Shown: one piece after another, positions 2,999 to 37,672 of the stretch
Layout: each line of letters opens with the position of its first letter
How positions within the stretch are numbered: the first letter of the stretch is position 1
Source of the DNA: a virus
Lineage: Duplodnaviria; Caudoviricetes
Virus record (IMG/VR): IMGVR_UViG_3300042808_000009
Coordinates: 1 to 37,672 of that record
Reading direction: 5' to 3' (one strand)
Length of the DNA: 37,672 bases
Translations under genes and position numbers: made by a program
The notes under the pieces: model-generated
The model's database searches: none
What the model was told of the DNA's origin: nothing
The model's input: only the letters and a program-made list of their open reading frames with translations

Positions 2999-5248
2999 AT
3001 GAAAAAAATAATATCAAATTATATATTCGATGCTTCAGCCAAGACTATAACCTTGAGCGATTATGATTCAATATCGCTAGAAAGAGTTTTACTGATAGCA
3101 AATGTGGTAGATAATATTGTAATCTACGATTTTTCTAATCCTCTAAAAGGAGGAAGTGTTCTAAATAATGTTCTTACATTGGAGTACGATACTACATCAA
3201 TGTCAGACACAGACAATCTTCAGATTTGGTATGATGACGGAGTATATGAAGAATCAGGAGCAGTAGTTACTAACGCAAGACAGAAATTTAGAGATGGGTT
3301 TGCTTTAGGAGGAACTCAGCCAGACCCTACTATATGGGACACAATAGATGATAATCCGTCAGCAAACATAATAGAGACTGGCGGTAATTCTTCTAGCTCT
3401 TCTTACCTAAGAATTTCTCTTTCTCCTTTCCATGACGACAACATGGTAAGTATAACTTCGAAGAAATTATTTGCCATGCCTTTTAGAGTTGGATATGGAA
3501 TATCTCTATCTCAAAGAATAGTCGGAGTCGAGTGTGGTATGGAAATGGTCGGAGTAGATGAAAATGGAAATGTAGATAATAGCACTCCTATCGCTGATAA
3601 GGCTATAACAGGGGCTACTATTACAATAGCTTCTAATGTGGGAACTGTAACATGTACTGGTCATGGATTAGTGGGGGGTGATAGAATTGCAATATACGGA
3701 TGTGAAGACCCGAGGATGAATGTTTCTCCAGTAGTAGTTACCGTAGTAGATGCTGACAACTTTACTGTTCCAATAACCGCATCAAATGGAACATACTCTT
3801 CTTTGAATGGTTACATTAGAGTCATTGACCCATTCCTATATGCAAAGAATGGAGCTTCTTATCTTACAGAAAATGCTACTGCTACTAACGCTACGGTGTA
3901 TAATAGAAGAAATGGAAGTTCTTTTAGAGCTTTGAATTCTACTATAGCTACCACTGTAGCAAGTCAAGCAAATACATCTCCTTTTACAGATTCTTTCATA
4001 TCAGCAGCAACTCAAGAAATATATTCAAACTTGGATGAAGTATCTTGGAGGTCTGTAGGATTCGATGGAGTAGCAACTCCTTCTGGTTTGCTTAAAAGAA
4101 CTCAGGGGATACCAGACAACGATGTAAATTACAAGATGAGGGTAAGGATAAAAAACATCAAGGGTCTTACTAAGCCTATAGCCAGAATAACATCAATATC
4201 TAAAGGAGGTACTACTACCGCCACAGTAACAACAGATGTAAAACACAATCTTACTACATCAGACTGGATTCAGATTTACGGTGTGAGAGATATTGCTAAC
4301 TTCCCAAATCTTACAGCACAAACTCAGGTTTCTTCTGTTATAGATGATTATAATTTTACAGTTGTTATGACTGGAGCTGTTACCGCTAATTCTGCTGGTG
4401 GAGTTGTATGGAAAGTTCAAGGTTCTGTTTTAGCTCCTGGAGTTTATGCTCAGAATATCCAGAGCATATCTAGGACTAATAATGTATTGGCTGTAGTAGG
4501 AAATACTACATGGGCTACTCCTCTTCCAGGAGAGACTGTTCATTTATATGGTTTAGATGGGTCTGGAGCTGCTTATGAAGGAGCTTACAAGGTATTGAAG
4601 GTAAGTACATCAACTTTATACTTAGAAAGCGTAGGAGACGATTTTGTGTCTTTAGATTGCGGTGGTTCGGTAATAAAGAGAACAGACCTAAGAATCCATT
4701 TTGTTAGGGTTCTTGATTACACTAGGTTAGTAACTGAAATAGTCGGAGGAAGAGGAAATACTACCGATATAAACAACGCTGTTCCAGTAGCTATTACTGG
4801 TAGTGCTACATTGGCGGCAACTGTTTCTGGGGGTGCGGCAATAGATGCAGCGGTAGCTGGAACTCCAGTCGGAGCAGCCTGTAGAGCATCATTAGCCACC
4901 CCAGCAGCAGTATCAGCAGATGGTGATGTCCAGTTACCTTGGGTAGATAGAGTAGGTAGGCAAATGATTTCTCAAAAGTGTGCCACAGCGACAAAAACAA
5001 ATGTTTCTGGAAGTGCATCTAGCACGCAACTATTAGCGGCTAATACATCAAGACTTGGAGCTACTATATATAACGATTCTTCAGCTATAATGTATCTTAA
5101 CCTAGGAAGTACAGCTACATCGACAGACTTTACTGTAAAACTAGAACAGGATGATTATTACGAAGTTCCTTTCGGATATACTGGAGTTATAAACGCTATA
5201 TGGGCTAGTGCTACAGGAGCAGCAAGAATAACAGAACTAAGTTCATAA
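2999..5248 (+). CDS. Tail-fibre/baseplate-associated structural protein
   Basis: ATG 2999 preferred over TTG 2990; N-terminal 'YIFDASAKTITL...LLIANVVDNIVIYDF' module; repeated 'TVT..HGL..GD.I.IYG' (E1-FCCH-like) modules; Thr/Ser/Gly-rich. Confidence 0.7.
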   Translation: MKKIISNYIFDASAKTITLSDYDSISLERVLLIANVVDNIVIYDFSNPLKGGSVLNNVLTLEYDTTSMSDTDNLQIWYDDGVYEESGAVVTNARQKFRDGFALGGTQPDPTIWDTIDDNPSANIIETGGNSSSSSYLRISLSPFHDDNMVSITSKKLFAMPFRVGYGISLSQRIVGVECGMEMVGVDENGNVDNSTPIADKAITGATITIASNVGTVTCTGHGLVGGDRIAIYGCEDPRMNVSPVVVTVVDADNFTVPITASNGTYSSLNGYIRVIDPFLYAKNGASYLTENATATNATVYNRRNGSSFRALNSTIATTVASQANTSPFTDSFISAATQEIYSNLDEVSWRSVGFDGVATPSGLLKRTQGIPDNDVNYKMRVRIKNIKGLTKPIARITSISKGGTTTATVTTDVKHNLTTSDWIQIYGVRDIANFPNLTAQTQVSSVIDDYNFTVVMTGAVTANSAGGVVWKVQGSVLAPGVYAQNIQSISRTNNVLAVVGNTTWATPLPGETVHLYGLDGSGAAYEGAYKVLKVSTSTLYLESVGDDFVSLDCGGSVIKRTDLRIHFVRVLDYTRLVTEIVGGRGNTTDINNAVPVAITGSATLAATVSGGAAIDAAVAGTPVGAACRASLATPAAVSADGDVQLPWVDRVGRQMISQKCATATKTNVSGSASSTQLLAANTSRLGATIYNDSSAIMYLNLGSTATSTDFTVKLEQDDYYEVPFGYTGVINAIWASATGAARITELSS

Positions 5249-14191: not shown

Positions 14192-14923
14192 ATGGAAAAT
14201 AAAAATATTTTAGCTACTATTCACGAAGAAGTGAACAGGGAGCTAGCAAATAAAGAAGTTTTGGCAACTCTAGTTCAGACTACTTTCAAAGGTCTTACTG
14301 CCGAAAATGCAAGGCAAGCTATAATTGAGGGAATGGTAAGAGGATTCACTTTTAAGGACTTCTTAGAAAAAAATATCTACGCTATTAAGTTTGGGGACGG
14401 ATATTCATTGGTTACATCAATTGACAACTCTAGGAAAATAGGAATGAGAAGCGGAATAGTAGGAACTGATGCTCCAATATATACATACGATGATGAAGGA
14501 AAAGTAGAATCATGCTCGGTAACTGTTAAAAAAATGATTAACGGTTATGTAGGAGAATTTACTGCTTTAGTATTCTTCGATGAATATTACAAGCCAGGTA
14601 AAACCTACAATGGAAAATATACTCCTTCTTTGTGGGATACTAAGCGAAGAACTATGATTGCAAAAGTAGCAGAGATGCACGCTTTAAGAAAGGCTTGTCC
14701 TGAAGAACTCGCTCAATCTTATGTAGAAGAAGAAATAGGAAGAGAAGAAGCTTTGAAAGTAGTAGACGAAGAGAACTCTGCTGAACAGTGGAAGGATAAG
14801 ATTTCAAAGTCAGAATCAATTGCTGAACTTTCTAAGAATTGGAGCGATACACCTATCCAGTACAAGAAAGAATTAGAATCTCTGAAAGATGAGATGAAGA
14901 ATAATCTAATTGAAAAAAAGTAA
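14192..14923 (+). CDS. bet: Single-strand annealing protein, Red-beta/RecT family
   Basis: LWDTKRRTMIAKVAEMHALRKACPEEL..Y motif; adjacent to the exonuclease. Confidence 0.85.
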   Translation: MENKNILATIHEEVNRELANKEVLATLVQTTFKGLTAENARQAIIEGMVRGFTFKDFLEKNIYAIKFGDGYSLVTSIDNSRKIGMRSGIVGTDAPIYTYDDEGKVESCSVTVKKMINGYVGEFTALVFFDEYYKPGKTYNGKYTPSLWDTKRRTMIAKVAEMHALRKACPEELAQSYVEEEIGREEALKVVDEENSAEQWKDKISKSESIAELSKNWSDTPIQYKKELESLKDEMKNNLIEKK

Positions 14924-15666
14924 TGAAAATAAAAAGGTTTGAAACAAAAGATGAATGGATGAAGGCTAGAAATGGGAAGATAACAGGTTCTTCCCTAGCC
15001 GATATCGTAAGCCAATCTGGAGCTACGAAAGAGATTATATGTAATGCTCTTGATGAGTTAGGAATAGAGTATGACAAGAAAGCAACAAAAGATGTTTTAA
15101 TGGATATGCTTCCTGTTTTAGAAAGAGCTAGGATAGAAGTAAATGGAGATAAGAAAATAGGATTTTATGAGCTTATCGCTAAAAGGATAGCCATAGCTCC
15201 AGACGGAGAGAATCCTATGGATAGGGGAACTAGGCTAGAGCCTGAAGCAATTGCTAGATTTGTCAAAGAAACTGGTAAGAAAGTAGATTCTTCTCTAGTT
15301 ATATGGGAGAGAGACGATAATGATTCTATTGCTCTTTCGCCAGATGCTTTTATTGAAAACAAGAAAGGATTAGTAACAGAAGCGGTAGAGGCAAAATGTC
15401 TATCTTCAGCAGACCATATTAAAGCATTTCTTACTCAAGAAATACCAGACAAGTATAAATGGCAAACAAGGCAATATTTCATCGTAAATAAAGACCTGGA
15501 AAACTTGTACTTCTGTTTCTATGACCCTCGTGTAATGGCAAAAGACTTCTTCTTCATCTTGATTACAAGAAAAGATGTGGAGAAAGACACAGACTTCTGC
15601 TTAGAGTTCGAAAAGCTAATCCTTAAAGAAGTAGAAGATGTAGTTAATGAACTGACAGGGTTCTAG
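14923..15666 (+). CDS. YqaJ/lambda-type exonuclease with HeH/LEM-like insertion
   Basis: EWMKARNGKITGS, MDRGTRLEPEA, SPDA, EAKC, WQ..QY motifs. Confidence 0.85.
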   Translation: MKIKRFETKDEWMKARNGKITGSSLADIVSQSGATKEIICNALDELGIEYDKKATKDVLMDMLPVLERARIEVNGDKKIGFYELIAKRIAIAPDGENPMDRGTRLEPEAIARFVKETGKKVDSSLVIWERDDNDSIALSPDAFIENKKGLVTEAVEAKCLSSADHIKAFLTQEIPDKYKWQTRQYFIVNKDLENLYFCFYDPRVMAKDFFFILITRKDVEKDTDFCLEFEKLILKEVEDVVNELTGF

Positions 15667-15667
15667 T

Positions 15668-16066
15668 ATGGAAAAAGTATTCGGATGCAAAATTGAGGGA
15701 GGAAAGTTAGTTTTTACTAGCCCATCCTCCTTCAGAGAGCATTGTAAGACTTTAATAGGAAAAGAATTAGTTCTAACTTTATCTGACAGGAAGAAGAAGA
15801 GAAGTCTATTGCAAAATAATTACTACTGGGGTGTAATAATAAAAATACTATCCGAAGAACTCGGATATGAGACAGAAGAAATGCACGAGGTATTGAAAAG
15901 CCTATTCATACCTCCTAAGGAAATAATAATTAAAGGAATACCGTTCGAGGTAAGGAAGTCCACCTCTAAGCTAAACAAAAAAGAGTTCATGGAATATAAG
16001 GATGCAATTCAGAGATGGGCTGCTTCAATGGACATATACATTCCAGACCCGAACGAATTTATATGA
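15668..16066 (+). CDS. NinB/Orf-like recombination accessory protein
   Basis: KRSLLQNNYYWG...STSKLNKKEF.EY...IPDP. Confidence 0.7.
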   Translation: MEKVFGCKIEGGKLVFTSPSSFREHCKTLIGKELVLTLSDRKKKRSLLQNNYYWGVIIKILSEELGYETEEMHEVLKSLFIPPKEIIIKGIPFEVRKSTSKLNKKEFMEYKDAIQRWAASMDIYIPDPNEFI

Positions 16067-16230
16067 AAACTATGTTCACAAATATATTTGCTGTAATATT
16101 TATCTACTTTATCCATGTTCTATTTTTCGTTATTATACAATGGGCTACTAACGGATTACTAGGGACATCTTTTGAATTTAATTTTCTTGCAGGAGGATTG
16201 CTATTAATGATTGTTAGGATGTTACTATGA
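16063..16230 (+). CDS. Small two-TM membrane protein
   Basis: ATG 16063 (ATGA overlap); two hydrophobic helices. Confidence 0.7.
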   Translation: MKTMFTNIFAVIFIYFIHVLFFVIIQWATNGLLGTSFEFNFLAGGLLLMIVRMLL

Positions 16231-16739
16231 AACCAAAATCAGCACAGCAAAAAGGAAAGAGAGCTGAGAATGAAGTAAACCGAAGAATAGAGAGAGCAGG
16301 TCTAGGAAAGTCAGTAAGAACTCCTGGCTCTGGGAGCGGAAAGATGAAGGGAGATGTATTCAATAGCTTACCATTTACAATCGAAGTAAAGAATCAGAAG
16401 ACAATAAAGCTCATGGAGTGGATTAAACAATCGAAGGAGCAGGCTAGAATAGGCTCTTATGACCCTAACAAGTGGGCTTTAGTAATAGTAGACCCTCAAG
16501 GAGTTCAAGACCCTGAGAGGATGGAAATATTCGCTGTAACAGAATTGGATGAGTGGCTAGAGCTTCTTAAAAAGTATTCAGAGCCTAAGATAAAAGAGCC
16601 AGACAGGGAATTGAAATATCTTTTGGAATCTGTTAAAATAAGTATAGATAGAGTGATTAAAGACCCGAATGAGCTTAACAATAAATATTTTGCAAAAAGG
16701 ATATCAGATACCGCAAAGAAGATTATCAAGAGATTGTAG
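16227..16739 (+). CDS. Holliday junction resolvase-like PD-(D/E)xK nuclease
   Basis: KGKRAENEV...RTPGSGS...GDV...IEVKNQ. Confidence 0.75.
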   Translation: MKPKSAQQKGKRAENEVNRRIERAGLGKSVRTPGSGSGKMKGDVFNSLPFTIEVKNQKTIKLMEWIKQSKEQARIGSYDPNKWALVIVDPQGVQDPERMEIFAVTELDEWLELLKKYSEPKIKEPDRELKYLLESVKISIDRVIKDPNELNNKYFAKRISDTAKKIIKRL

Positions 16740-17074: not shown

Positions 17075-17167
17075 GGCGGTGTGGTGAAATCGGTAGACAC
17101 CTATTCTAAAGCTGGAATAGTAGCCTATGAGACTAATAGGTTGGGGGTTCGAGTCCCTCCTCCGCCA
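17075..17167 (+). tRNA. tRNA-like element A (Leu-like class II scaffold, 8-nt anticodon loop, no assignable anticodon)
   Basis: Acceptor GGCGGTG/CTCCGCC-A; D arm GTG-AAATCGGTAGA-CAC; TATTC-TAAAGCTG-GAATA; long variable arm; GGGGG-TTCGAGT-CCCTC. Confidence 0.7.
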
Positions 17168-18663: not shown

Positions 18664-18738
18664 GGAGATATAGTTTATGGAAAACATTCCTCTGGTAACC
18701 CCAGTAGAAAGAGACAGGTTCGATTCCTGTCGTCTCCA
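18664..18738 (+). tRNA. tRNA-like element C (23-nt anticodon arm)
   Basis: GGAGATA/CGTCTCC-A; GTTT-ATGGA-AAAC; ACAGG-TTCGATT-CCTGT. Confidence 0.65.
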
Positions 18739-19208: not shown

Positions 19209-19302
19209 TCCACTCTAGTTTAATAGGAAAACCTCTTCGCTAGTGCGACTTAAATGTCGCCAATGCAATAGAGTAATGAAGGTGCAAATCCTTCGAGTGG
19301 AA
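19209..19302 (+). tRNA. tRNA-like element E (about 41-nt anticodon arm)
   Basis: TCCACTC/GAGTGGA-A; GTTT-AATAGGA-AAAC; CTCT...GCGAC-TTAAAT-GTCGC...AGAG; GAAGG-TGCAAAT-CCTTC. Confidence 0.65.
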
Positions 19303-22880: not shown

Positions 22881-22908
22881 TTGTATATTTATATGAAAGT
22901 AGTATAAT
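22881..22908 (+). promoter_or_regulatory. sigma70 promoter for the portal operon
   Basis: TTGTAT-16-TATAAT. Confidence 0.6.
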
Positions 22909-22939: not shown

Positions 22940-23167
22940 ATGGCAAAAAAAGACACAAAAACATCAGAAAAAGATGTAAAACCAACTGGAAGTGATAAAA
23001 ATACTTCAAAAGGAGCAGCAAACAAAGATTTTCCTATTCCAATCTATGATGTATACGGAAATCTAATCAGAGAGTATTCAAAGGAAGTTCATGGAGAAAA
23101 ATACAAGGACTTAGCTGAACAGTTCTGTAAGAAAGGATATCTATTAGAAAAACCTAAGAAAAAATAA
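22940..23167 (+). CDS. Small basic hypothetical protein
   Basis: ORF track. Confidence 0.75.
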   Translation: MAKKDTKTSEKDVKPTGSDKNTSKGAANKDFPIPIYDVYGNLIREYSKEVHGEKYKDLAEQFCKKGYLLEKPKKK

Positions 23168-23188
23168 TACAGACCGCTCCAATGTATT

Positions 23189-25093
23189 ATGAAAACAGAA
23201 GACATAGAAAAAATATTCGTTCAGTGTAAAGCGGAGATTGACCATGAAAGGAATCTGAAGAAGAAAAGGATTGATGAGGTAGCTCTTAACGAGGACATAA
23301 TAAACTCTGTCAAACCATCTTCCACAGACAGCAGAGCAAACTTCTCTCTAGGTAGAGGAGACGAGTTCTTAGAGACTTACCTATCAAAAATAATAAGTCC
23401 TCTTACATTCAAATTCACGAAGAAGAAGGATTCTCAAATGCAAGAAGTAATCCTGATGAACGCATTGAAAGATACTGATAAAACAAAAGGACAATGGGAC
23501 AGGAAGGATAGGTTCTCGAAAGTTCAAGCAATTACTTACGGTAGAGCAATACAGTTCTATTGTGCAACTACAGCCAATGGAAAGTATAAGTCAATCTTAG
23601 AGAACATAGATTTCTATGATTTCCTAATTGATTCTGACGCAGGCGGAGAAGATATAGAGAAGGCTTACTACATGGGAAATTACAATGTGGTTATTCCTAG
23701 AAAAGACCTGATAGAGGGAGCTAAAAAAGGAATATACCTAAAAGAACCAGTAGCTAGACTTCTAGAAGGTACTAACAACCAGACATTGACCATAGAAGAG
23801 CAGTATAAGATGAGAAGAGATACCGACCTAGGAAAGATAGTAAAACTTCCCACAAAAGAAAAGTACAAGTTTTGGAGATGGTTTACTACTTACGAAGGGG
23901 AAAGGTATTACTGTATTCTTGACAATGACGGAACTGGTATTAGATGTGAACTTATGAAAGAAGCCTTTTCTGGAACTGAAGATTGTCCTCAAGGGTGTTA
24001 CCCATACACCACATGGGCTACCAGAGATGATATGACAGTGTTTTGGTCAAAAAGTCCTATTGATGCAATTAGGGAATTAATTTACGGAGAAAATATCAGC
24101 ATCAATCAGATGATGGATAACTCCGAGCAAGTTAATAATCCTCAGAAAGCTGTTCAGGTAGAAAATATTAAGAATATGGCTGAGCTGAAGTACAATAGGA
24201 AGAATCTTCATATATTGGTCAAGGGAGATGTAGATATCAATAAGGCTTATAAGCCTATGGTAACACCTCCTATTGATACTCCTATCAAGGTCTATGATAT
24301 TTTAGAATCAATCCTTCAAAAAGCATCTGGGGTAACCGATGCAACCGCAGGGGTAGCAGATGAAGACGGAAAGGTAGGAATATACGAAGGAAATGTTCAG
24401 GCTATAGCAGACAGATTCAGGCTAATAAGAGACAGGTATAGAGATTCTTACCAAAGGCTCGGGATGCTCTATCAGCTGGGAGTAAAAACAAATCTTAGTA
24501 CTAAGCAAGCTGTAGAGATAATCGGAGAAGATGGTGTAGAGGTTAAAAAGATATCTAGGAGAGACCTTTTCAAGAAAGGTGATGATTTCCTCATAAAAGT
24601 AGAATCAGCCGACTCAGAAGCTACTAAGGGGGCTATAGAGCAAAGAACTAAGATTCAGTTCTTAGAAAGAAATATTCTAAATGCAGTCCAGAATCAAAAG
24701 AAGGCTTATGAACTTGGAGCAAGAGCTGCTGGATTCACTGAAGACGAAACTAAGTCATTATTAGATACAAGTGAGTACGGAGATGCAAAGCTTATGTCTG
24801 AATGTTCAAGAGACATTGAAGATATCATAGGCGGTAAAGAAGTAAAGCCTAATAGGAGAGCTAACAATGCCTACAAGAAGAAGATAGTAGACTACATGGA
24901 AGACCAGGCAGAAAAAATAGACTCCAACCAATTCAAAATGCTTCAGGATTATGTGTTAAAGATAACTCCTATAGTTACTAAGAATGAAGCCAAGGACTTG
25001 ATGATAAAACAGCAAGCATTACCACCTGTTCAGGGAGGAGTACAAGCAGGAGTGTCGAACCCTGTTCCTCAAGAAGAGCAACAATTAACTTAA
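23189..25093 (+). CDS. Portal protein
   Basis: 634 aa after TerL; FW..SP...IRE.....N...NQ.MDN....NNP and SGVT...G motifs of P22-like portals. Confidence 0.8.
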   Translation: MKTEDIEKIFVQCKAEIDHERNLKKKRIDEVALNEDIINSVKPSSTDSRANFSLGRGDEFLETYLSKIISPLTFKFTKKKDSQMQEVILMNALKDTDKTKGQWDRKDRFSKVQAITYGRAIQFYCATTANGKYKSILENIDFYDFLIDSDAGGEDIEKAYYMGNYNVVIPRKDLIEGAKKGIYLKEPVARLLEGTNNQTLTIEEQYKMRRDTDLGKIVKLPTKEKYKFWRWFTTYEGERYYCILDNDGTGIRCELMKEAFSGTEDCPQGCYPYTTWATRDDMTVFWSKSPIDAIRELIYGENISINQMMDNSEQVNNPQKAVQVENIKNMAELKYNRKNLHILVKGDVDINKAYKPMVTPPIDTPIKVYDILESILQKASGVTDATAGVADEDGKVGIYEGNVQAIADRFRLIRDRYRDSYQRLGMLYQLGVKTNLSTKQAVEIIGEDGVEVKKISRRDLFKKGDDFLIKVESADSEATKGAIEQRTKIQFLERNILNAVQNQKKAYELGARAAGFTEDETKSLLDTSEYGDAKLMSECSRDIEDIIGGKEVKPNRRANNAYKKKIVDYMEDQAEKIDSNQFKMLQDYVLKITPIVTKNEAKDLMIKQQALPPVQGGVQAGVSNPVPQEEQQLT

Positions 25094-25099
25094 AAAAAG

Positions 25100-25504
25100 A
25101 TGCCAGAAGTAGAAGAACAAAGAGAAGAAGAAGTAGGAAAGCTTAGTTACGAAATTTTCGAAGAGAATAAAGATGCTCCAGAAAATACTCTTATAAAAGT
25201 AAGTGGATTCGTAAGGATATTCAAATTTTCTGAGATACTAAGCGACTTAGAGTATTACAAGAAAAAGAAGATAGAGACCGAGAGCAATATCGGAATACTA
25301 AAGTCTCAGCAAGATATCATCGTGTCTTCTAATAAGGAGCTAAAAGATATGAGCGTAGAGACACTGAGAGCTGCTAGTGCATGCTACGAAAAGATAGTAG
25401 TTCAATCTCAGCTGAATAAAGAACTTGGTGAGCTTAACGATGAGATTACTTACCTTACTAGACTAGCTGACGAAATAAAGGAGAATACAAAGCTAAAGAT
25501 ATAA
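25100..25504 (+). CDS. Hypothetical coiled-coil protein
   Basis: ORF track. Confidence 0.75.
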   Translation: MPEVEEQREEEVGKLSYEIFEENKDAPENTLIKVSGFVRIFKFSEILSDLEYYKKKKIETESNIGILKSQQDIIVSSNKELKDMSVETLRAASACYEKIVVQSQLNKELGELNDEITYLTRLADEIKENTKLKI

Positions 25505-25508
25505 TCTT

Positions 25509-25811
25509 ATGGAAAAAGACAAAGAGAAAATTGAAAGCATGAAGAAAGACTGGGGTCAATATACAGAGATTGTTAAAGTAGCTGAAAGCAAAGGAGGAAA
25601 GAAAATAATTTCTCTTATAAAGCAAGACGCATGTTCTTCAATTGTTTCTTTAGGAAACTATAAGGATATGAGTAGGGATGAGCTTGTATCGGTTATAGCA
25701 AGAATGAACGAGAGGATTGAATTGCTAAGATTATTCAAGAACTCAAAAACAAATAAAGAGGTAATAGAAGAAATTTTAGAATCAATTGATTCTGAAGAAG
25801 AGAAAGAATAG
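25509..25811 (+). CDS. Hypothetical protein (post-portal small protein)
   Basis: ORF track; position typical of podovirus head modules. Confidence 0.75.
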   Translation: MEKDKEKIESMKKDWGQYTEIVKVAESKGGKKIISLIKQDACSSIVSLGNYKDMSRDELVSVIARMNERIELLRLFKNSKTNKEVIEEILESIDSEEEKE

Positions 25812-25814
25812 CCC

Positions 25815-25894
25815 ATAGTGGGTTATTCCCCATCATTGACTGGTATTTAACTTAGCGGTCTGGTATCTTTTGATGGTGGGGAATAGCCTATTAT
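25815..25894 (+). ncRNA. 25-bp RNA hairpin with 30-nt loop
   Basis: ATAGTGGGTTATTCCCCATCATTGA / TTGATGGTGGGGAATAGCCTATTAT pair fully when G-U is allowed. Confidence 0.65.
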
Positions 25895-25897
25895 AAT

Positions 25898-25925
25898 TTG
25901 ACAAGTATTTTAGTAGGTATATAAT
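25898..25925 (+). promoter_or_regulatory. sigma70 promoter for the scaffold/capsid operon
   Basis: TTGACA-16-TATAAT. Confidence 0.75.
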
Positions 25926-26029
25926 ATAAGTAACAACCGCTGGTGGAATCCAGTTTTCAAGTGCGAGCGACTTGTCCGAAAGGAGAATAATGCTCCGAAG
26001 TGCCATACTGCGTTAATAAGGTCTCATCT

Positions 26030-26764
26030 ATGCCAGAAGAAAATAAGGTAATAGAAAACGCTCCAGTTCAGGAGGATAATAAAGAACAGATAGTGGTAGA
26101 AAACAAGAAGCCAACTATTGAGAACATCTTAGAAGAATCAAAACCTTCAAGGACAGTTCCAGAATCTGTATTCATTCAGCAGAAGAACGAAGCTAAAAAA
26201 CATAAGAACGAAAATGTTAAGCTAAGTAACGAAATCGCTGAACTTAGGAGACAGATTGATAGTGGCGAGATAAGTAAGAGGGAAGGTAATGATAGCATCG
26301 ACAAGCTAGCGGAAGAGTACAATGTCGATAAAGACTTCGTAGGAAAGCTTGCATCAGCCATAAAAGCTGATACAGAAGCCAAATTTGAAGAGAAGCTAAG
26401 ACCTTTCAAGGAAAAGGAGAAGAAAGAGACATTCGACAAGGTATTCAAAGAACATTATAATAATGCTCTTAAAGAAATGCCAGAGTTTGCAAATATTGCA
26501 GATGAGGATGTCATAAAAGCTCTTGCCCTAAGACCTGAAAATAAAGATAAGTCTTTAGAGGACATCTTCGAGAAAGTTTACGGTAAAGTAGTTGTAAGAG
26601 AAAAGAAGCCAGTAGAATCATACACTCCAGGAGGAGAGAAATTGAATCCTGCTGTAGATATGAAAAGGGCTGAGACAGATATTGACTACTTGAATAAAGT
26701 TCTTGATGACCCTTCCACAAAAAAGATTTATAATGAAAATAGAGCAAGAGAGCAGAAAAGATAA
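26030..26764 (+). CDS. Scaffolding protein
   Basis: ATG 26030 (MPEENK); charged coiled coil with 'TVPESVF...K'; directly upstream of the capsid gene. Confidence 0.75.
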   Translation: MPEENKVIENAPVQEDNKEQIVVENKKPTIENILEESKPSRTVPESVFIQQKNEAKKHKNENVKLSNEIAELRRQIDSGEISKREGNDSIDKLAEEYNVDKDFVGKLASAIKADTEAKFEEKLRPFKEKEKKETFDKVFKEHYNNALKEMPEFANIADEDVIKALALRPENKDKSLEDIFEKVYGKVVVREKKPVESYTPGGEKLNPAVDMKRAETDIDYLNKVLDDPSTKKIYNENRAREQKR

Positions 26765-26787
26765 ATTAGAAGACCGCTCTTAACAAA

Positions 26788-28002
26788 ATGTCTTTAACCA
26801 AATTTAATAAGGTAGTAAGTAACTCATATCAGGAAGATTTCTACAAGAAAGTAGTAAGTCCAGAGATATGTTCAACAAAATGGAAGGAGCAACTAAAGTA
26901 TGGTGAAAGTATTGAAAGACCATATCTTGACCTTTCCAATGTAAGTGTAAGGGCAACTGTAAAAAATTCAGCATCTACAATCGATGATGTTTTAGACGGT
27001 TCTGAGTTCTTGACAGTTAACCTATCTTTCGAAACAGCAGTAGGTATCCATGATGACGATGTAAAGCAGGCTAGTAACCTAAAGCCAATCGAGAAAATCG
27101 GTTCTCAGCTTGGTAAGAAAATAAGAGTTCACCTTGACGGTTCAGTCCTAAAGGAAATTAAGAACGCTTACCAGACATTTGACACAGGTGATTTGACTAA
27201 CCTCATTTCAACTGGAGTCCCAATGGAACTTAACACAACTAATGTTCCAAAGATGAGTTCGATGATGATGGCTAAGCTAAGAGGAGCAGATATTGATATC
27301 GAAGAATACACAATGTGTTTTGTCGGTGATGCTTTAGCTCTAGCTCTAATTGAGCAGTACCTACAGTCAAAGGCTACTGACAACGCAGCCAACATCTTTG
27401 CTAATGGTTACAAGGGTAAACTAGCAATGGGAAGGATTTATACATCTGAAAACTTGACTGGTGAAGCTGTATTATCTATGGCAACACAGCCTACAGATGG
27501 TGATACAGTAGTTATTAACGGAATTACATTCACCTTCAAGACTGTTCTTGGAGCAGTCGCAGGTAATGTATTGATTGGAGGTTCAGCTGATGTAGCTAGG
27601 GCAAACTTGGCAGCATTGATTAACTCTCCTTCTACTACTACTGCTAACGGAGTAGCATTGTCAGCAGCTAACATCAAAAAGATTAGCGAGACATTAAGGA
27701 TTGCAGCAACTAACGATAACACAGCAAACACAATGACTATCGTTGGTACAGGTTCTGGTAGGTTAGCTGTTTCTGAGACTTTTACTGATGGAACAGATGC
27801 TTGGACAGCAAACTTCATTCACTGCTACTATGGTGTTCAAGGAGAAGGAATCGATTTAGTAGTCCAGGACTTAACAGAAGTAGACATCAGAGAAAATTCC
27901 GACAGAAGGTCATCTAACATCTTTGCTAATTACTTAGCAGGTGTTAAGGTCTTCATCGATGGTGCTAGGAAGTTCTTGGATGTATGGGTTAAGGTTTCCT
28001 AA
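26788..28002 (+). CDS. Major capsid protein (P22-coat-like HK97 fold) with insertion domain
   Basis: Position; KYGESIERP, G.IYTSENL and YLAGVKVF motifs. Confidence 0.8.
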   Translation: MSLTKFNKVVSNSYQEDFYKKVVSPEICSTKWKEQLKYGESIERPYLDLSNVSVRATVKNSASTIDDVLDGSEFLTVNLSFETAVGIHDDDVKQASNLKPIEKIGSQLGKKIRVHLDGSVLKEIKNAYQTFDTGDLTNLISTGVPMELNTTNVPKMSSMMMAKLRGADIDIEEYTMCFVGDALALALIEQYLQSKATDNAANIFANGYKGKLAMGRIYTSENLTGEAVLSMATQPTDGDTVVINGITFTFKTVLGAVAGNVLIGGSADVARANLAALINSPSTTTANGVALSAANIKKISETLRIAATNDNTANTMTIVGTGSGRLAVSETFTDGTDAWTANFIHCYYGVQGEGIDLVVQDLTEVDIRENSDRRSSNIFANYLAGVKVFIDGARKFLDVWVKVS

Positions 28003-35559: not shown

Positions 35560-37672
35560 ATGGCTTTATTAGACGAAATACTAGCAGAAGACGAAGGACT
35601 GAATAAAAAGTCCGTTCCTTCTAATATTTTCCCTTCTGCGGTAAAAAAAAATATTCCTGCCAAAAAAAGTCTCCTTCAATCTATAGAAGAAGAGGATAAA
35701 AGCACTCCCCTACCCTCTCCAAAAGCCCAAAATAAGCCATTCTGGGAGAAGATGGGGGAGGGGATAGTGCAAATACCTGAAAAGGTAGTAGGAGCAGCTC
35801 AGGAGAGGGCAAAATTGGCTGGAGAATCGATTGCAAAGATACCTACTTATGCAGAAAAAGCAGGAGGTAGTCCTTTGGCTTACGGTTTATCTACACTTCA
35901 AGCCGCTGGAGATGTCGTTGGAGAAGCGGCAAGGTTCGGTGGAGATGTTATTGGAGCTGGTATTTCTCCTTTGGGTGCTATAATACCAGAAGAGGTAAAG
36001 AAACCAGCAGGAGAAGCGATATCAGCAGTCTCAGGTGCTATATCTTCTGGAGTAGAATCTATTCCAGGAATGACACCAGAAATAAAGAAAGGTCTAGGAA
36101 ATGTCTTTGATGTAGCTACTTTAGGATTCGGAGGAAAAGCTGCTAAGGGAGCATTAGAAACAGCTCCTACTGTTGGAAAGGTGGCTAAGGAAGCTGCTGA
36201 AACTACAGTTACTAAAGCTAAGGAGGTAGTTCCAAATGTTATTGAATCGGTAAGAACACCAGAGAGGATTGCCAAGAATGTAGATGAGCTTGAACAGACA
36301 TATATCAATATTGCTAGCGGAACTAAACCAGGAATGAAGAAGTTATCAAAGACTGAAGCAAAGACTGAAGCTCTTGACATGGCTGGAACTTCTGGAAAGA
36401 CACCGATGAGGTTATTAGCAGAACAAAGAATTATTCCTAATGTATCTGGAACTAAGATAGATACAGCCGCTCAAGCAGATGAATTAAGAAAATCAGTCTC
36501 TCCTTTAGTAGAGAAGAATAAGGAGGCACTGAAACAGGCAGAACTCTCTACCGCTCCAGTTTCTTTCGATGAACTAGAACAAGCAGCAATAGCAAAAGCA
36601 AAAACCCAAAGAAATGTAGATAGCGGAAGATTCGATAAGATGGAAAAGGAAATAATAAACGAGTTCAATTTACTTAGGAAAAACTATCCAGAAGGAAATG
36701 TACCGCTTACGAAGATAGACGAAATAAAATCAGCAAGGTGGGATAATATTTTTGCTAATAAGGGATTGATGGATGCAGACATCCTTAAAAAAGATAGTGA
36801 GTATGCAATCGCAAAATCTCTCCAGGAAACAATAGAGAAAAGAGCCAAAGAGGCTGGAAATGAAAATGTAGCTCAGTTAAATAGAGATATCGGGGATATT
36901 TTAGAATCATCTAAGTTCCTAGAGGACATCAATGGAAATACAATCAAGGGAGGAAGACTTTTGAAATATGTCACTACCGCTATCGGTGGAACTTATGGGA
37001 CAAGTGCCTTTGGTAAAGTTATTGGAGCATTGACTGGAAACATGGTCGGTCAATTGATTCTATCTAATGAGATAGCCAATCCTATCAAAAGGGCTATTCT
37101 AGGAGAGTTCAAGGCTTCAAACCCTCAATCATTTACTAAGACAGTAGAATGGCTTAGGAAGCAGAAATTAGACCAAGAATCTAGGAAATTATTACCACCT
37201 CCTAGCTTCATTCCCGCAAAAGCCCCAGAGGTAAAATCAGGAGCGGTACTACCAACAAAACAGACACCTGAAGAACTTAGAGCATCGCAAAGAGCTGCTG
37301 GAGTAAAAACTAATCCCGCTCTCCCATATTCTCTTCCCGCTCCAGGACAGACCACTAAGCCCGCAATAAAAGTATTCCCCGCTGGAAAGAATATAGACTA
37401 TCTAGGAACTGACAAGAATGTAGTGATTCCTGGAAAGTTACCCCAGAGCAAGATTATTAAACCTAAAAACTCTGAAATAACTGTATATAGGGGTGGTAAA
37501 GAAAATGGAAGATATATGTCTACAAGTAAAAATGTAGCTGAAGATTTTGCAAAAAATAGAGGTGGATATGTTTCGCAATTTACTATTAATCCTAATGCAA
37601 AAATAGCAAATTATTCAGATTTTCCAAATGCTACTTATAAAGGAATAAATGATTGTAATATCGATAGATTTT
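35560..37672 (+). CDS. Large DNA ejection protein, runs off the window's right edge; ART-like motif near the end
   Basis: ATG 35560; frame open in every stretch I translated through to the window end (absent from the track because it has no stop); VYRGG...MSTSKNVAEDF. Confidence 0.8.
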   Translation, partial: MALLDEILAEDEGLNKKSVPSNIFPSAVKKNIPAKKSLLQSIEEEDKSTPLPSPKAQNKPFWEKMGEGIVQIPEKVVGAAQERAKLAGESIAKIPTYAEKAGGSPLAYGLSTLQAAGDVVGEAARFGGDVIGAGISPLGAIIPEEVKKPAGEAISAVSGAISSGVESIPGMTPEIKKGLGNVFDVATLGFGGKAAKGALETAPTVGKVAKEAAETTVTKAKEVVPNVIESVRTPERIAKNVDELEQTYINIASGTKPGMKKLSKTEAKTEALDMAGTSGKTPMRLLAEQRIIPNVSGTKIDTAAQADELRKSVSPLVEKNKEALKQAELSTAPVSFDELEQAAIAKAKTQRNVDSGRFDKMEKEIINEFNLLRKNYPEGNVPLTKIDEIKSARWDNIFANKGLMDADILKKDSEYAIAKSLQETIEKRAKEAGNENVAQLNRDIGDILESSKFLEDINGNTIKGGRLLKYVTTAIGGTYGTSAFGKVIGALTGNMVGQLILSNEIANPIKRAILGEFKASNPQSFTKTVEWLRKQKLDQESRKLLPPPSFIPAKAPEVKSGAVLPTKQTPEELRASQRAAGVKTNPALPYSLPAPGQTTKPAIKVFPAGKNIDYLGTDKNVVIPGKLPQSKIIKPKNSEITVYRGGKENGRYMSTSKNVAEDFAKNRGGYVSQFTINPNAKIANYSDFPNATYKGINDCNIDRF

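Follow-up and report, generated by a model that had tools for sequence, protein, structure and literature searches.

The question raised by this locus is why a hairpin loop behind the portal operon of a phage repeats, in inverted form, a short word that stands just before the starts of two head genes. The phage is the Caudoviricetes record IMGVR_UViG_3300042808_000009, and the window (the whole stretch of DNA analysed) comprises 37,672 nucleotides (nt) of it. According to the comparison of relatives presented here, this is a real, selected and lineage-specific RNA-RNA address by which a 3' hairpin is connected with the points where the procapsid genes start, its sign and molecular form being predictions. 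The loop and the leaders are almost certainly joined by RNA-RNA pairing. As for its function, predicted folds incline us to see the hairpin as a lock-and-key translational activator of the procapsid genes (portal and capsid), which would open the leader stems and free the start codons. The elements involved, with ORF standing for open reading frame and aa for amino acids, are the following:

25815-25894, + strand: long hairpin (the "key") at the 3' end of the portal operon, starting 4 nt past the stop of a 100-aa ORF
25854-25862, + strand: guide segment within the apical domain, complementary without mismatch to 23170-23178 (9 nt) and, over 8 nt, to 26771-26778
23164..23190, + strand: portal leader hairpin (the "lock"), a predicted fold with 5' arm 23164-23171, loop 23172-23182 and 3' arm 23183-23190
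26757..26795, + strand: capsid leader, a predicted fold with the target 26771-26778 in a 4-pair hairpin (26770-26781)
25898-25925, + strand: sigma70 promoter for scaffold and capsid, 12/12 consensus match, directly behind the hairpin
25936-25941, + strand: candidate third target, a 6-nt loop complement at the predicted 5' end of the scaffold-capsid messenger RNA (mRNA)

The hairpin and its targets in the window

The hairpin consists of 25 outer pairs, followed by a 6-pair helix with three G-U pairs and a weak 3-pair apex. The + strand folds at -41.9 kcal/mol (z -6.9), compared with -18.3 kcal/mol (z -1.4) for the - strand. The 9-mer AGACCGCTC, to which a first-pass annotation of this DNA had drawn attention, was confirmed at 23171-23179, 9 nt before the portal ATG (23189), and at 26771-26779, 8 nt before the capsid ATG (26788). 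The complementarity that this annotation had described between loop and leaders spans 9 nt in the portal leader (23170-23178) and 8 nt in that of the capsid, but the ninth base of the 9-mer (a C) is left unpaired by the loop. The extension proposed for the portal pairing is also less straightforward, as the GGTAT in question sits in the weak 6-pair helix and not in an open loop. Similarly, the word does lie where a Shine-Dalgarno (SD) sequence would be expected, but the leaders listed for the window genome are A/T-rich and none of them carries an SD. A third, weaker site (ACCGCT, 25936-25941), absent from the first-pass annotation, lies 10 nt behind the -10 box of the sigma70 promoter.

That such a word is unlikely to be there by chance was borne out in part by a genome-wide count. 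The 8-mer AGACCGCT occurs three times on both strands of the 37,672 nt, namely in the two leaders and as the inverted copy at 25854-25861, and 100 dinucleotide shuffles gave a mean of 0.44 copies and a maximum of 2; however, the word was picked post hoc, and the count is weak on its own. Matches with one mismatch are not enriched (11 versus 13.6 expected). Scanned without constraints for duplexes across the whole genome, 21 nt of the loop region gave the portal site as joint best on the + strand; the capsid site was not among the best matches listed, and the scan did not single out the targets. When a 13-nt loop core was scanned within loci of 9-15 kb, the capsid site was among the top five windows of the scan in 21 of 40 loci and the portal site in 14 of 31. 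The stronger duplex sites, inspected in six loci, fall within coding regions and are treated as chance.

Rfam scans of the window (at E<=1) and of five related loci (at the gathering score) returned tRNAs only. The terminator scan of the window did not list the hairpin, whose stem and loop exceed the limits of that scan.

Loop and leaders across the relatives

A total of 183 related loci were gathered, 139 of them with distinct capsid genes. The 100-aa ORF, the scaffold gene and a clean capsid start were found together in 108; five with capsid inserts or odd starts were dropped, and the others were short of coverage. Dereplication at <90% capsid identity left 76 representatives, 51 "long" and 25 "short" (24 of the latter with a hairpin). 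Long-class hairpins hold at least 15 pairs and an apical domain of at least 6 nt, a rule that ignores the targets and was set after the sequences had been viewed, its apical limit being lowered from 7 to 6 nt along the way. Misfolded or non-guide loci (L019, L036, L066, L097, L119, L133 and L135) were retained in the long class and counted alike. The long-class hairpins have a median of 25 pairs and fold better on the + strand in 42 of 51 loci.

Complementarity was scored between a 19-nt segment on the hairpin apex and 60-nt leaders, counting runs of at least 7 Watson-Crick pairs and setting cognate combinations against 20,000 permutations, which do not model descent. In the long class, such runs appear in 33/51 capsid leaders (permuted mean 7.4, maximum 19), 16/37 portal leaders (mean 2.5, maximum 10) and 12/51 scaffold 5' regions (mean 2.3, maximum 9). 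The leaders used as controls stay within the permuted range (p100 2/50, adaptor 4/46, p212 1/22, terL 1/31), and the p134 leader (8/47; permuted 3.1, maximum 11) is not significant over the family. The result is maintained when CCCC loops are left out, with 15/24 for the capsid (versus 2.5, maximum 10) and 7/15 for the portal (versus 1.0, maximum 6). Among the 24 short-class hairpins, apex-leader pairing does not go beyond the permuted range; taking the whole intergenic region of this class, there is a weak signal with the capsid leader (p 0.019) and none with the portal (p 0.82). Independently of the loop, a G+C-rich word of at least 6 nt is common to the portal and the capsid leader in 17/37 long loci (permuted 4.5, maximum 12) and in 1/21 short ones.

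These words are swapped wholesale between lineages. The key of the window is AGACCGCT, while relatives carry GGTTGTGGA (L006), GAACAGG (L012), GACGAGG (L035) or GACTGGGGA (L071), each of them before both portal and capsid. Between the window and L006, with 56% capsid identity, cognate combinations score 8/8, whereas the crossed ones score 3.5 and 2.0. For 14 chosen loci, the matches in a cross matrix fall mostly on the diagonal, and cross-talk occurs between keys made of G-runs. Shared descent can copy one chance match, but it cannot create many different complementary pairs. The scaffold 5' end appears, by the same kind of comparison, as a third target in part of the family.

The first-pass annotation had named compensatory changes in relatives as the way to examine its proposal and independent variation as its refutation; loop and leaders were found to change together. 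Its inference that an RNA loop pairs with head-gene leaders draws support from this covariation and from G-U tolerance; its reading as a whole, which has a small RNA possibly released by RNase III, is partly upheld. Complementarity, covariation, G-U tolerance, strand and the position of the targets in leader stems have all been demonstrated by comparing sequences. Where a site holds one odd pair, it is G-U in 17 cases, A-C in 5 and both in 2, against a non-cognate background of 183 and 369. This preference, together with the better folding of the + strand, indicates pairing of + strand RNAs and argues against the protein operator on DNA or RNA that had been offered as the alternative. One word with three copies near head-gene starts is what such an operator, or chance, could leave behind; yet the word is replaced wholesale in relatives with its complementarity kept, the loop carried it inverted in the cases observed, and the controls remain within the permuted range, so that we consider operator or chance very improbable.

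Some further observations concern the hairpin and its sites. RNAalifold on a MAFFT alignment of 24 hairpins found no consensus structure; the stems, of variable length, are some 43% alike, and their conservation therefore rests on single-sequence folds and not on counted covariation. A recurring GUGU..CUG / CAG.ACA..AC pattern near the stem base, present in many relatives, is possibly a nuclease or protein site. In L097 (about 425-671) the hairpin holds an extra branch, with the C-rich loop intact. In five loci (L021, L022, L027, L078 and L168), a fourth G-run complementary to the loop is found where the portal gene ends, within 17-33 nt of the 134-aa ORF and mostly followed by a C-run, and isolated further pairing sites occur before p100 (L012, L021) and before the adaptor gene (L013, L041). 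Six short-type loci (L036, L037, L039, L066, L138 and L171) show GACCGAT or GACGGAT about 15-20 nt before the capsid AUG, a sequence resembling the window target and lacking a consistently covarying partner in the intergenic region.

Leader structure and the direction of the effect

Does the pairing open or close the leaders? In the window, two letters of the portal start codon (A and U) belong to the 3' arm of the lock. A small hairpin is predicted for each of the 22 long-class portal leaders that pair, and its 3' arm either reaches into the AUG or stops 0-9 nt short of it; the sequence of the arms varies with the key, and the target takes in the loop and part of the 5' arm. In capsid leaders, a single-stranded toehold is typically followed by a G-run whose pairing partner is a C-run immediately ahead of the AUG. 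In the window, the 4-pair hairpin of the capsid leader is nested in a predicted helix (26757-26763/26789-26795) that takes in part of the start codon, and blocking the target lowers the predicted opening energy by 3.2 kcal/mol.

This last calculation was extended to the family by forcing the target single-stranded and comparing the energy to open the AUG (-12..+12) with that obtained after control blocks; the targets were runs of at least 6, including a few chance matches. With the capsid target blocked, the opening energy falls by 2.8 kcal/mol (n=42; control blocks 0.4; p 4e-6), 28 leaders being lower and 4 higher; with the portal target blocked, it falls by 2.4 kcal/mol (n=19; control +0.2; p 1e-4), with 15 lower and 1 higher. 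The target is the upstream arm of the leader stem in 15/17 portal and 26/39 capsid leaders. A target goes with a more closed portal leader (median 5.8, against 2.9 where it is missing, p 0.002, and 2.5 in the short class, p 2e-5); for the capsid, leaders that have one exceed control genes in closure (4.95 versus 2.4). According to these models, target-bearing portal leaders are predicted to be closed by default and to open when the target is occupied, and the leader geometry favours activation. Net pairing energies, which include the opening of both partners, are -8.5 kcal/mol for the portal, -6.3 for the capsid, -1.1 for p100 and 0 for the adaptor in the window; across the 37 loci with a portal leader, values of -4 or lower were obtained for 22/37 portal, 20/37 capsid, 3/37 p100 and 1/34 adaptor leaders.

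The same pairing could be repressive, the loop kissing the leaders and blocking initiation, so that the head genes would be silent in a lysogen or early in infection and changes of key would define immunity groups, in the manner of P1 C4, P4 CI or icaR. The portal targets, at -18..-10 (median -18) with the G-run exposed in the hairpin loop, fit this possibility, as do the perfect-consensus sigma70 promoter of the scaffold, which would need silencing, and the relative L167, an integrated prophage with a tyrosine integrase. Most loops are, moreover, C-rich, like the UCCCC motif of icaR (PMC3868564). However, the targets are not SD sequences, and SD words are not enriched in these phages; the median capsid target starts at -35, with a pairing that runs into the 5' arm and away from the AUG; the portal leaders that bear a target are closed to begin with, something that a repressor would have no need of; and the key lies behind the portal gene, so that it would be made when head genes are needed. 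Repression is for these reasons considered unlikely, although it is the alternative to which we give most weight.

A division of sign between the two genes seems quite improbable to us. Here, the key would dampen the portal through its close site, as a negative feedback in cis, and activate the capsid through the distant toehold, setting a low portal to high coat ratio. Both designs do differ (a target displayed in a loop at -18 for the portal; a toehold plus stem at -35 for the capsid), but the position is close for both genes in the window, L006 and L031, and the predicted opening energy falls with both designs.

Activation of both genes, our preferred reading, has to face several results that weigh against it. 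RNA bound at the portal targets (-18), or at -20 to -10, where the capsid targets of the window, L006 and L031 lie, normally blocks the 30S subunit; in favour of activation, the median capsid target starts at -35, beyond the stretch that a ribosome usually covers. Target-bearing capsid leaders are not significantly more closed than those of the short class (4.95 versus 4.2, p 0.49), the capsid arm bias of 26/39 is borderline (p 0.053), and the capsid site of the window itself was scored as pairing mainly upstream. The net pairing energies permit loop-loop contact and ignore sterics, and nested RNAcofold, which cannot form loop-loop contacts, gave no complex (ddG 0) between the window hairpin and the portal or capsid leader. 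In addition, 15/37 long-class portal leaders show no pairing (dG > -10), the scaffold 5' site is not significant by duplex energy (p 0.057), and in L006 this site kept the window sequence while the loop changed. A quick capsid tree, in which long and short loci are interleaved and the window stands on a long branch, leaves 22/73 forks open, and the permutations ignore descent. Finally, 25/76 representatives belong to the short class, which means that head assembly does not need the key.

The transcription units give the activator its possible routes. One further element has to be added:

22903..22908, + strand: candidate -10 box (TATAAT, seen directly) of a promoter feeding ORF75-portal-ORF134-ORF100-hairpin

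This box is accompanied by a -35 with only 3/6 matches and was not listed by the promoter scan, and its role is an inference. The window scan listed no + strand terminator-like site between the portal leader and the hairpin. Behind the hairpin, a -10-like box within 55 nt is present in 40/51 long-class loci and in 1/24 short-class ones, and hence the capsid and scaffold contacts could be made in trans. At least 5 T within the 9 nt after the hairpin were found in 13/51 long-class loci. Five portal genes appear to be near-leaderless, with a -10 box 4-14 nt ahead of the ATG, and none of them has a target (p 0.05), which speaks for activation.

The activator would operate as follows. The portal-operon mRNA would end in the hairpin or leave it behind as a stable 3' fragment. 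Pairing would begin between the loop and the exposed half of the target and then advance into the 5' arm, so that the A/U-rich stretch and the AUG, which SD-independent initiation would need, become accessible. The portal would be contacted in cis, 2.7 kb upstream, and the scaffold-capsid mRNA in trans; in L050 and L068, where the -10 box behind the hairpin is missing by eye, the key could work wholly in cis. At the scaffold 5' end, it might protect or open the first nucleotides. Since the head promoters are plain host sigma70 promoters, the key would supply late timing, acting as a positive-feedback threshold and tying bulk capsid synthesis to completed portal messages, a delay for which neither a late sigma factor nor an antiterminator would be required. 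The P22 procapsid is nucleated by portal, scaffold and coat (10.1101/2022.12.13.520362), so a single key would couple coat synthesis to finished portal messages. With a distinct key in each lineage, co-infecting phages and prophages would not activate one another's head genes; alternatively, the differences may be no more than compensatory drift.

SD-like words at -16..-5 appear in 1/76 capsid, 6/58 portal and 0/62 adaptor leaders and are not commoner there than at -46..-35; to judge from these leaders, the phages of the family use no SD sites, and the targets are not SD sequences. The close targets fill the SD position in such leaders, and the long-class hairpin starts right at the stop codon (median 1 nt past it). 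These two facts, and the coincidence of the three targets with the proteins that nucleate a P22-type procapsid (10.1101/2022.12.13.520362), would suit a physical role, in which the hairpin hands ribosomes from the last stop to the portal (as a closed loop) and capsid starts, replaces the SD-anti-SD helix in an SD-free host or gathers the three mRNAs for co-translational nucleation. Nevertheless, short-class hairpins also begin near the stop (median 5 nt) without any pairing, a single loop binds one target at a time and the leader stems are more simply read as locks; we see little probability in this role. Marginally more is granted to a broader, speculative scheme, in which a self-encoded, lineage-specific RNA address would replace both late transcriptional control and SD recognition, the hairpin docking portal, scaffold and capsid messages, delivering ribosomes and gathering the messages so that the procapsid nucleates co-translationally around the portal.

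Genome setting and comparison with known systems

The genes of the locus, and a second element in front of the scaffold, are the following:

23189..25093, + strand: portal protein, 634 aa; AlphaFold model with pLDDT 79, best Foldseek matches to podovirus portals (E 4.5e-14)
25100..25504, + strand: conserved 134-aa ORF (p134); position kept across the family, no family matches
25509..25811, + strand: conserved 100-aa ORF (p100), predicted helical; its stop adjoins the hairpin, as seen in the alignment of relatives, and its ESM Atlas look-alikes are unnamed viral clusters
25958-26022, + strand: two predicted tandem H-type pseudoknots just before the scaffold AUG, in the window and 38 relatives, separate from the key
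26030..26764, + strand: putative scaffolding protein, 244 aa; by gene position and an ESM Atlas score of 0.96 to a cluster auto-named "putative Scaffolding protein"
26788..28002, + strand: major capsid protein, 404 aa, HK97 fold, Sf6/P22-like; AlphaFold pLDDT 86.9, Foldseek match to the Sf6 coat (E 2.3e-11)

Sequence searches gave no name for portal, scaffold or capsid, and it was the predicted folds that named portal and capsid. The 244-aa ORF is taken as a putative scaffolding protein, a lead based on its position and on the Atlas clusters, of which a second (0.92) has PF09306 on 13% of its members; a PHROG search with it returned no matches. As regards the pseudoknots, 74% of cells are paired over 39 leaders versus 59% when shuffled, with slid controls at 26-45%, and 11/15 pairs show two-sided change, the structure having been drawn by eye from the same sequences on which it was scored. 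Short-class scaffold leaders have a similar layout by eye. The element has no Rfam match and is possibly a site of scaffold autoregulation.

The host is likely a member of the Patescibacteria, judging from source labels of sequences, because the two capsid homologues (among 1,423 at E<=0.001) whose source name includes an organism are labelled Parcubacteria and Paceibacterota, and L167 is a prophage with a tyrosine integrase (PF00589) and housekeeping genes on either side, in a 568-kb contig of a Saccharibacteria-labelled metagenome-assembled genome (MAG). Some matches sit in MAGs of other phyla. No close relative of the phage was found among GenBank phage records (best 27%), and a search for the 16S 3' end of the host in four MAGs holding relatives found no 16S. 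The L167 prophage region (L185/L184, G001:C1 about 267600-308500) has its integrase near gltX, with rplI on the opposite side, and a cluster of ORFs that, judged from their N-termini only, are glycosyltransferase-like.

Elsewhere in the window there are three tRNA genes (17075-17167, 18664-18738 and 19209-19302) and a recombination module at 14192-16739 (RecT-like, RecE-like, NinB and RusA); no integrase was found among the scanned window ORFs. An element of about 80 nt occurs in three copies (793-872, 1115-1194 and 1821-1900), each of which lies before a leftward ORF and has the reverse complement of TTGACA at its end; these are probably repeated leftward promoters. In the final part (35560-37672), no complete + strand ORF is listed after 35555 and a frame seems to run off the right end, where the contig may be incomplete. 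Among the relatives, L026, L029, L045, L072 and L164 carry inserts of 480-870 nt at the capsid start, in the scaffold-capsid gap, several of which end in a shared motif; these are possibly introns or homing elements breaking the capsid 5' end. In L030 (about 4415-5196), the pre-scaffold region is some 600 nt longer.

To our knowledge, there is no account of late-gene timing in Patescibacteria phages. A head-gene key of this kind was not described in the literature searched, which did not cover most subscription journals or the supplements of PMC10690425. That paper reports five candidate RNAs upstream of a major capsid protein, and its main text mentions neither "portal" nor "kissing"; its supplementary motif tables, outside the search, could hold the scaffold-leader motif or the hairpin. 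If the activator is confirmed, it would represent a protein-free late switch and a natural toehold-like activator common to portal, scaffold and capsid messages, and it would bear on the link between the supply of portal and the synthesis of coat. Near-orthogonal key-lock pairs exist naturally in the family (such as those of the window and L006) and could serve as riboregulator parts, and the idea can be addressed in reporter or cell-free systems without culturing the host.

Several known systems share part of this design. The small RNAs that activate rpoS depend on Hfq. They act as anti-antisense activators (DsrA, RprA, ArcZ and the prophage-made StxS), in which a short seed pairs with one arm of the inhibitory leader and is reported to activate translation (PMC7547250). 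As in that case, the target here coincides in part with the upstream arm of a leader stem that masks the initiation region with its other arm, and natural compensatory changes keep the pairing. Contrary to those single-stranded seeds, which address a host gene with a long leader, the key is a loop of 7-10 nt on a stem of 20-30 pairs directed at the phage's own head genes, with SD-free leaders of 25-60 nt and lineage-specific keys and locks.

Immunity RNAs of the C4/CI type have complementary sites upstream and downstream in the same region, and their targets control antirepressor or immunity-operon genes. C4 of P1/P7 and CI of P4 are processed by RNase P (PMC5499578). The locus resembles them as a structured phage RNA inside the regulated region, with sites upstream (23170-23178) and downstream (25936-25941, 26771-26778), and sequence swaps would likewise give specificity groups. 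It differs in that its targets are procapsid genes and that the geometry predicts opening instead of termination or block; with these other targets and no Rfam match, membership in the C4/CI family was ruled out.

In icaR of Staphylococcus aureus, a C-rich element of the 3' untranslated region (UTR) pairs with a G-rich 5' UTR site before the start codon of the same message, so that the SD is paired and translation repressed (PMC3868564). The 3' C-rich element and the G-rich site before a start codon are common to both. In contrast, many keys are not C-rich, the sites are non-SD and lie within leader stems, and a second operon with its own promoter is also addressed. An SD-sequestering loop was ruled out here, as the window target is not SD-like and SD words are not enriched at -16..-5.

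In plant RNA viruses, kissing between a 3' cap-independent translation element and the 5' UTR brings the 3' end into long-distance loop contact with the leader. The contact proposed here is also one between a 3'-end loop and a 5' leader, although with no sign of initiation factor recruitment. Synthetic toehold switches combine a single-stranded toehold with a stem that hides the start. The capsid leader repeats this order, a toehold followed by a start-hiding stem, but in a natural form, in a bacterial double-stranded DNA phage and with a trigger of 7-10 nt.

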